Virus genome (UHGV): UHGV-0026213
Reading direction: 5' to 3' (one strand)
Source: a virus
DNA: 64,000 nucleotides
Positions 13,019-13,040 of this stretch are shown in pieces. The notes below the pieces were generated by a model. The model ran no database searches, was not told where the DNA came from, and saw only the letters and a list, made by a program, of their open reading frames with translations. Within the stretch, counting starts at the first letter, position 1, and each line of letters begins with the position of its first letter. The position numbers and the translations under genes are program-made.

Positions 13019-13040
13019 CAGATATATATTACTTAAGTGA
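13019..13040 (+). promoter_or_regulatory. Promoter-like motif M1 CAGATATATATTACTTAAGTGA
   Basis: Lies in a divergent intergenic region and is followed by a 7-bp hairpin GGCTGAA..TTCAGCC. It matches M2 at 21 of 22 positions. Confidence 0.45.

Follow-up and report, generated by a model that had tools for sequence, protein, structure and literature searches.

Five plus-strand copies of a promoter-like motif, M1 to M5, punctuate the window analyzed here, a 64,000-nucleotide stretch of the virus genome UHGV-0026213, and very likely represent early promoters of a phiKZ-like (Chimalliviridae-type) jumbo phage, M1, M2, M3 and M5 being solid members of the set and M4 probably belonging to it as a conserved variant [Table 1]. 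The motif is that of a known promoter class, newly seen in an uncultivated lineage. A first-pass annotation had listed six copies and proposed either a phage-specific promoter class or a regulator operator. All six quoted strings are indeed present at their coordinates, and the fit of M1 to M5 to published promoter strings speaks for the former proposal. Of the six-copy set, M1, M2, M3 and M5 (29-57 bits on the scoring matrix described below) and the variant M4 were retained, and M6 (-6.9 bits) was discarded.

Similarity searches (PHROG, tblastn) identified the window as part of an uncultivated jumbo phage akin to Salmonella phage SPN3US (Seoulvirus) and Erwinia phage phiEaH2 (Erskinevirus), with ~64% identity in a conserved virion protein and synteny with SPN3US from gp169 to gp239 (~145-212 kb of that genome). 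No close relative of the window was found in the GenBank phage set. In IMG/VR, the aligned stretches of the 225-kb contig IMGVR_UViG_3300029126_000001 were mostly 90-98% identical to the window, IMGVR_UViG_3300045988_113438 was ~92-96% identical, IMGVR_UViG_3300045988_078609 and IMGVR_UViG_3300014543_000002 showed ~73-77% identity, and further, more distant contigs showed 66-75%. When positions 12000-20000 were compared by megablast with 50,697 phage records, almost the sole match was a stretch of ~60 nt around M2, shared with 33 SPN3US-like or Erskinevirus-like genomes. Rfam and ARAGORN searches of the window returned no matches.

M1 and M2 are equal at 21 of 22 bases, a degree of likeness that no pair attained in 100 shuffles, the 22-mer core of M2 lying at 17407-17428. 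The core is exactly TATATTAC in M1 and M2 and AGATATTATC in M3 to M5. In agreement with the first-pass description of the copies as intergenic or overlapping the stop codon of the upstream gene, and as pointing into plus-strand gene blocks, all five belong to the 6.5% of the window made up of non-coding sequence and stop codons, and each is directed into its downstream plus-strand gene. M1 sits in the divergent intergenic region between a baseplate gene (12024-12989, minus strand) and a plus-strand block, and M5 in a 71-nt divergent gap between the homologues of gp220 (43707-44171, minus strand) and gp221 (44243-44791). M3 overlaps the TAG stop (35085-35087) of ORF 34419-35087, with ORF 35124 beginning 21 nt downstream, and M4 overlaps the TAG stop (25595-25597) of ORF 25037-25597 and is followed by the SLT transglycosylase gene. 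Transcription is predicted to start at ~13037-13041 for M1 and at ~17425-17429 for M2.

Table 1 Motif copies and associated features in the 64,000-nt window
Feature	Position	Strand	Remarks
M1	13019..13040	+	TATATATTAC type; 41.6 bits; 2 mismatches to N1M2 consensus
Stem-loop after M1	13046..13066	+	7-bp GGCTGAA/TTCAGCC; -13.7 kcal/mol, z = -2.2
Intrinsic terminator of M1 unit	17350..17380	+	GGTGGGGG..CCCCCACC plus T run
M2 (best copy)	17391..17428	+	Upstream A/T element ATTAAAAATAATTT and core CAGATATATATTACTTAGGTGA; 57.2 bits
Stem-loop at M2	17428..17445	+	7-bp AGAGTTA-cgat-TAACTCT
M4 (divergent copy)	25591..25612	+	GGG replaces GTG; 3.7 bits; 2 mismatches to OBP consensus
Conserved leader after M4	25613..25697	+	85 nt; likely start codon 25698
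M3	35081..35102	+	GATATTATC type; 29.1 bits
Virion RNA polymerase beta C-terminal subunit gene	42366..43034	+	83% identity over 221 aa to SPN3US gp218
M5	44200..44221	+	GATATTATC type; 36.4 bits

The full-length motif was statistically significant, unlike the short cores alone: TATATTAC occurred twice in the window against 2.15 occurrences expected, which is no enrichment, and AGATATTATC, with at most one mismatch, occurred nine times against 3.8, which is not significant. The published OBP 24-mer, allowing up to 3 mismatches, matched the window at five positions, namely M1 to M5 (0.02 expected in shuffles), and the published N1M2 26-mer, allowing up to 4 mismatches, matched at M1, M2, M3 and M5 (0.02 expected), with M1 to M5 differing from the two strings at 2-4 positions. 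On a scoring matrix made of 106 independent IMG/VR sites from other jumbo-phage contigs, M1, M2, M3 and M5 reached the scores given above, against a maximum of 12.8 bits in shuffled windows, and M4 remained at background level (3.7 bits), the core columns of this matrix being circular because its sites were chosen by a pattern derived from M1, M2 and M5. The literature-consensus scan and the free flanking columns are exempt from this circularity. A single matrix match of at least 10 bits was found in 1.03 Mb of unrelated viral DNA.

The copies were also conserved, all five being found again in relatives of ~77% DNA identity. M1 was kept in L008, L011 and L086, the latter two carrying the TATTTTAC variant, and was absent from relatives of 66-72% identity. 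All five aligned relatives retained the 22-mer core of M2, L086 and L011 each differing from it at one base, M3 was kept in L119 to L122, M4 was identical in relatives of ~77% identity, and M5 showed a single C/T substitution in more distant relatives (73-76% identity). M2, M3, M4 and M5 thus each carry at most one substitution in relatives of ~73-77% identity, in which the flanking coding sequence diverges. In the complete SPN3US genome, 24 matches scored at least 10 bits on the matrix, compared to 0.07 in shuffles. All but one lay on the plus strand, the lone minus-strand match being a palindromic echo of the site at 191601. A crude ORF map placed 21 of the 24 outside coding sequence, the deposited annotation placed 23 between genes, and the motif did not occur at a similar frequency inside coding sequence. 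The distance to the next plus-strand ORF was mostly 25-135 nt, with three sites closer and two at 200-260 nt. SPN3US sites at the gp179/gp180, gp208/gp209, gp196/gp198 (site at 174953, upstream of gp198) and gp220/gp221 (site at 191601) junctions correspond to M2, M3, M4 and M5, respectively. The proteins flanking these shared junctions are 27-63% identical between the two phages, those at the M3 junction merely 27-34%. Two further SPN3US sites (15613 and 15706) are located directly ahead of gp22/gp23, and another (28968) ahead of gp34/gp35, genes that all carry RNA polymerase subunit annotations and belong to the non-virion polymerase; their counterparts in the window's phage lie beyond the window.

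Across 110 related sites, numbered from the C of CAGA, columns left free in the search pattern were still conserved (A-14, TT, AAAA, ATTT-1), and positions -30 to -17 were rich in T. The conserved free columns define an asymmetric element of ~36 bp, whose upstream A/T part is weaker at M1 and M5. The copies fall into two sub-types, TATATATTAC (M1, M2) and TAGATATTATC (M3 to M5), the latter containing the inverted repeat GATA-T-TATC, which accounts for weak reverse-strand scores (5.8 bits at window position 44220 and 12.3 bits at SPN3US 191621). Mixed forms exist as well (20 of the 110 related sites, next to 68 of the TATATATTAC and 22 of the TAGATATTATC form), and the sub-types were considered variants of one class, not two families.

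The published early-promoter consensus sequences with which these copies were compared are listed in Table 2 of PMC7058600, and read TATATTAC for phiKZ, ...BTATATTACDWHDGTG for 201phi2-1 and ...TTTCARRYAKATATTATYWAAGTG for OBP/N1M2. The phiKZ core named in the first-pass annotation agrees with the string given in that table and is found exactly in M1 and M2. In phiKZ, primer extension, dRNA-seq and ONT-cappable-seq studies have mapped 28-32 early promoters, in which the -10 is extended and AT-rich and a T-rich element lies upstream of -19; the leaders are typically 31-40 nt long. The phiKZ site upstream of gp185 (attaaaaaaaatttGAGATTTATATTACTAGTGTG) aligned with M2 and scored 29.4 bits on the enterobacterial jumbo-phage matrix, and three of the four TATATTAC copies in a 40-kb piece of phiKZ were intergenic, 46-128 nt upstream of plus-strand genes. 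Sites of phiKZ share with M1 and M2 the same 8-mer core and, in order, an A/T tract, TTT, RAGAT, TATATTAC, a gap of 3-5 nt and GTG; they are likewise intergenic and co-oriented with genes, in a phage endowed with virion and non-virion multisubunit polymerases. In contrast, the window phage comes from another host clade, an enterobacterial SPN3US-like lineage, the flanks of its motif extend further and vary less (CAGATATATATTACTTAGGTGAGAGT), many copies have the variant TAGATATTATC, and its sites are predicted whereas those of phiKZ were mapped experimentally.

The best string match to M1-M5 was provided by Pseudomonas phage OBP and Klebsiella phage N1M2 (TTTCARRYAKATATTATYWAAGTGWA; 31 copies in N1M2), the K and Y positions of whose consensus cover both sub-types. 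In line with the position of M4, the authors of the N1M2 study noted that an early-promoter copy precedes the lytic transglycosylase gene of that phage (PMC7058600). OBP and N1M2 are, however, distant relatives with no DNA similarity to the window apart from the motif, and their promoters are bioinformatic predictions only. The 201phi2-1 motif, located ~10 bp upstream of start sites mapped by ONT-cappable-seq, is similarly AT-rich with conserved -10, -20 and -30 regions, but only 6 to 8 sites were reported and the upstream consensus is different.

In reviews, promoters of this class are attributed to the injected virion polymerase, and such a motif is considered bioinformatically findable in every polymerase-encoding jumbo phage; the assignment to the virion polymerase is indirect in the literature, the enzyme being unpurified as of 2017. 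The window's phage does appear to encode a multisubunit polymerase of this type. SPN3US gp218, the homologue of the product of ORF 42366-43034, has been assigned as the beta-C subunit of the virion polymerase, and packaging of the polymerase into virions has been demonstrated in SPN3US only (PMC5105663). A homologue of gp241 (76% identity) starts ~2.6 kb past the right end of the window in L129 and L134, two loci that overlap the window at 90-94% identity, and this position agrees with the SPN3US order gp238, gp239, gp240, gp241. ORF 1684-5892 (1402 aa), the length of which matches that of gp241, the SPN3US virion polymerase beta-N subunit, was rejected as its counterpart: it is devoid of an RNA polymerase domain and matches virion/tail-fibre families and hypothetical or virion structural genes located elsewhere than gp241 in SPN3US-like genomes.

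By analogy with phiKZ and 201phi2-1, a multisubunit virion RNA polymerase would be packaged in the head and injected along with the DNA. It would recognize the ~36-bp element, made up of an A/T-rich part, TTTCAGA, TA(T/G)ATATTA(C/T), 4-5 nt and GTGA, with the AT-rich core centered near -10 and transcription beginning at or next to the conserved GTGA, so that 21-85 nt of leader, comparable with the 31-40 nt usual in phiKZ, would precede the first start codon. The sequence match, its statistical excess, the location and orientation of the copies, their conservation and the virion polymerase genes are observations, whereas the early timing, the precise start point and the identity of the polymerase are inferred. 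Every copy would head a plus-strand transcription unit closed by an intrinsic terminator: M1 a unit of 13.1-17.3 kb, M2 one from 17.4 kb, M4 that of the SLT transglycosylase, M3 one of 35.1-37.4 kb and M5 one from 44.2 kb, and the stem-loops after the TATATATTAC-type copies M1 and M2 are predicted to form at the very 5' end of the RNA. As a counterpoint, M4 is without GTG and precedes a transglycosylase, a gene normally expected to be expressed late.

If correct, these assignments chart the promoters of an uncultivated SPN3US-like jumbo phage over 64 kb, with five predicted early units and their terminators. The 13.1-17.3 kb interval would be a hypervariable early-gene block with unrecognizable functions, a plausible place for host-takeover or anti-defence genes. 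The ORFs downstream of M1 had no Pfam match and one marginal PHROG match, and the gene content of the block varied from one close relative to the next, in the way that early accessory genes would be expected to vary. The promoter class is conserved almost base by base from Pseudomonas phage phiKZ to enterobacterial jumbo phages. The set may serve in the annotation of metagenomic jumbo-phage contigs and as templates for the study of promoter recognition by the virion RNA polymerase, to which no sigma-like factor has been assigned. It leaves current understanding unchanged.

Other explanations of the repeated motif were weighed against the early-promoter reading. The inverted repeat in the core of M3, M4 and M5, with its weak reverse-strand scores, and the annotation of SPN3US gp101 as a 'putative transcriptional regulator' speak for an operator bound by a phage-encoded repressor or activator rather than a promoter itself. 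Yet the best-conserved copies, M1 and M2 (TATATATTAC), are non-palindromic, the conserved flanks are asymmetric (A/T tract and TTTCAGA upstream, GTGA downstream), every independent site in the window and in SPN3US is directed toward the gene that follows it, and in phiKZ and 201phi2-1 the mapped start sites lie ~10 bp downstream of the homologous motif. Given this asymmetry and the constant orientation relative to genes, an operator is very unlikely. That the copies could be AT-rich host sigma-70 promoters with TATATT as their -10 hexamer is suggested by a single position of difference from TATAAT and by upstream A/T tracts resembling UP elements. A -35-like hexamer at 16-18 nt is absent, however, and, consistent with the first-pass remark that none of the copies looks like a sigma-70 -35/-10 pair, a sigma-70 scan listed none of M1-M5. 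Sigma-70-like pairs were in fact rarer between 12000 and 52000 than in shuffles (23 vs 35.5 and 23 vs 33.3), a scarcity that fits a phage not relying on the host polymerase. Sigma-70 promoters make no use of the conserved GTGA and CAGA flanks, infection of the phiKZ type is described as rifampicin-resistant, and the motif is essentially missing from 1 Mb of unrelated phage DNA, all of which renders host promoters highly improbable.

The copies might also be remnants of a mobile or recombinogenic repeat without a transcriptional role, given that the ~60-nt M2 cassette is almost the sole DNA shared with other genera at the megablast level and that genes have been inserted or deleted directly beside M1 and M2. 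Against this stand the persistence of the copies at the same junctions across genera while their surroundings diverge, their strict co-orientation with genes and the validation of the class as promoters in model phages, and we regard a non-transcriptional repeat as extremely improbable. A role in recombination and one as early promoters are not mutually exclusive.

Another known arrangement combining an injected polymerase with hairpins is that of phage N4, which possesses an injected virion polymerase and a small set of early promoters with hairpins near the sites. The N4 enzyme is a single-subunit polymerase that recognizes a hairpin upstream of the start site. The window differs in that its hairpins lie downstream of the predicted start and are absent at M3-M5, and in that its polymerase is multisubunit; N4-type hairpin promoters were rejected on the position of the hairpins and the nature of the polymerase.

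The shared TTCA flank of M1 and M2 and the perfect 7-bp hairpins that the first-pass annotation had noticed behind them are present [Table 1]. The M1 stem-loop shows one compensatory change, from G-C to A-T, in L008 and L011, and the M2 stem is kept in SPN3US and phiEaH2 with a different loop. At TATATATTAC-type sites elsewhere, a stable downstream hairpin was found in 68% of cases vs 34% of random 36-mers (mean z = -2.1); M3-M5 are devoid of one. Intrinsic terminators close the units at 17350, 26914, 37432 and 48403, the first of which ends 27 nt before M2, and SPN3US and phiEaH2 share this terminator-then-promoter layout.

These features are reminiscent of the PeSL cassettes of T4-type phages, composite motifs in which an early promoter is combined with a stem-loop/terminator and through which gene modules are shuffled (PMC2839356, PMC4122927). 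In PeSL cassettes, too, a terminator hairpin is followed by a highly conserved early promoter and then a stem-loop, the cassette DNA is conserved where the flanking genes are not, and genes are gained or lost at the cassette. PeSL promoters are of the host sigma-70 early type, unlike those of the window, which are of the phiKZ type. It is conceivable, albeit doubtful, that the terminator, TATATATTAC promoter and 5' stem-loop of M1 and M2 form a PeSL-like mobile regulatory cassette, with the GATAtTATC copies (M3-M5) as a distinct subclass. Compared to the window (17432-17463), L011, the closest relative, carries an extra 124-aa gene (9531-9980) between M2 and the orthologue of gene 17477, and SPN3US is missing gene 17477 at the M2 junction, pointing to gene gain or loss immediately downstream of M2; L011 has also lost 13081-13182 after M1. 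Indels hence flank both TATATATTAC-type cassettes, which amount to two cases only, in a hypervariable block and with indel density uncontrolled. Were the cassette reading true, the near-identity of the cassettes across genera would provide short homologous stretches through which SPN3US-, phiEaH2- and window-type phages could exchange early accessory genes, and M3-M5, fixed at core-gene junctions, might, for instance, be weaker or separately regulated.

Returning to the predicted early transcripts, the leader following M4 is nearly invariant in relatives of ~77% identity and can be aligned with SPN3US (L143, 24975-25057), where it lies ahead of the gp198 endolysin/SLT gene and the flanking proteins are just 51-63% identical. 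It contains AAAGGAG, a GC-rich hairpin base (GCGCCGTC...ACGGAA) and GTATAAATCC; an ATG-started mini-ORF found upstream in the SPN3US version is absent from the window. Downstream of M3, by ~80 nt and within the start of ORF 35124, a terminator-like hairpin with a T run (TCCCTCGTTGTTCGAGGGA ATCTTTTAT) at 35162-35190 is invariant in relatives and may be an attenuator, the end of a short RNA or a mere reflection of protein conservation.

A 26-codon ORF (13123-13203) that has a good ribosome-binding site lies 83 nt past M1. Given a frameshift in L008, its deletion in L011 and its many substitutions in L086, this ORF is probably not a stable gene. It is followed, still between M1 and gene 13411, by a conserved non-coding block at 13205-13375 (GGGATACCGGTAGGGGGTAGGGGGCAT ... 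GCGGAGG[TATAC-gga-GTATA]CCGACATAC ... GGAACGTAGTGACTTCC), which is kept down to relatives of ~66-72% identity and has no Rfam match. Its hairpin covaries, reading GGTGAC/GTCACC in L025 and GGTATCC/GGATACC in L111. The block might form a structured leader in the M1 transcript or else belong with the divergent baseplate gene. Its identity with the sRNA upstream of phiKZ gp182 was ruled out, the gp182 homologue being ORF 55589-57760, and a scan of the collection with CGGAGGTN{10,16}ACCGACAT was too unspecific, unrelated contigs being matched.

The weaker relatives of the motif suggested at 10262, 31092 and 40153 showed no motif match. The divergent gap at 10226-10293, between two virion-protein genes, contains GTTCATACTATGAC, kept down to relatives of 66% identity, which has the form CATA-n-TATG and thereby presents TATG on both strands. 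In phiKZ, TATG is the late-promoter consensus, and transcription starts at its G. Adjoining the start of the baseplate gene, L025 and L111 have a similar TCATACTA (TCATATTA in L116), and all of these are candidate divergent late promoters. At 31090-31114, the 25-nt divergent gap ATTAAAAATACTCCGAGGTGAG resembles the phiKZ middle-promoter motif AAAATTACC and is too near the ATG at 31115 for a start site ~22 nt downstream.

The terminator stem (T)ACCCTACTCC-loop-GGAGTAGGGT(A) recurs at three places in the window (28443-28464, 29057-29082 and 48403-48430), the copy at 29057 being a terminator when read on either strand. The same stem is found ahead of the M2-like promoter in SPN3US and phiEaH2, and looks like a clade-wide conserved terminator motif comparable to those reported in phiKZ and 201phi2-1.

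Finally, the score of M6 is noise; M6 points antisense into the 3' end of ORF 52084-52380, and the stretch in which it lies is absent from all four relatives aligned there, so that the resemblance was treated as chance. This 98-aa ORF, which follows the thymidylate synthase ORF (511 aa) within 50541-52380, was found only in the window and in one relative (L124). The thymidylate synthase ORF itself harbors an HNH endonuclease segment at about residues 120-270, which, together with the 98-aa ORF, suggests a homing-endonuclease or mobile insertion.
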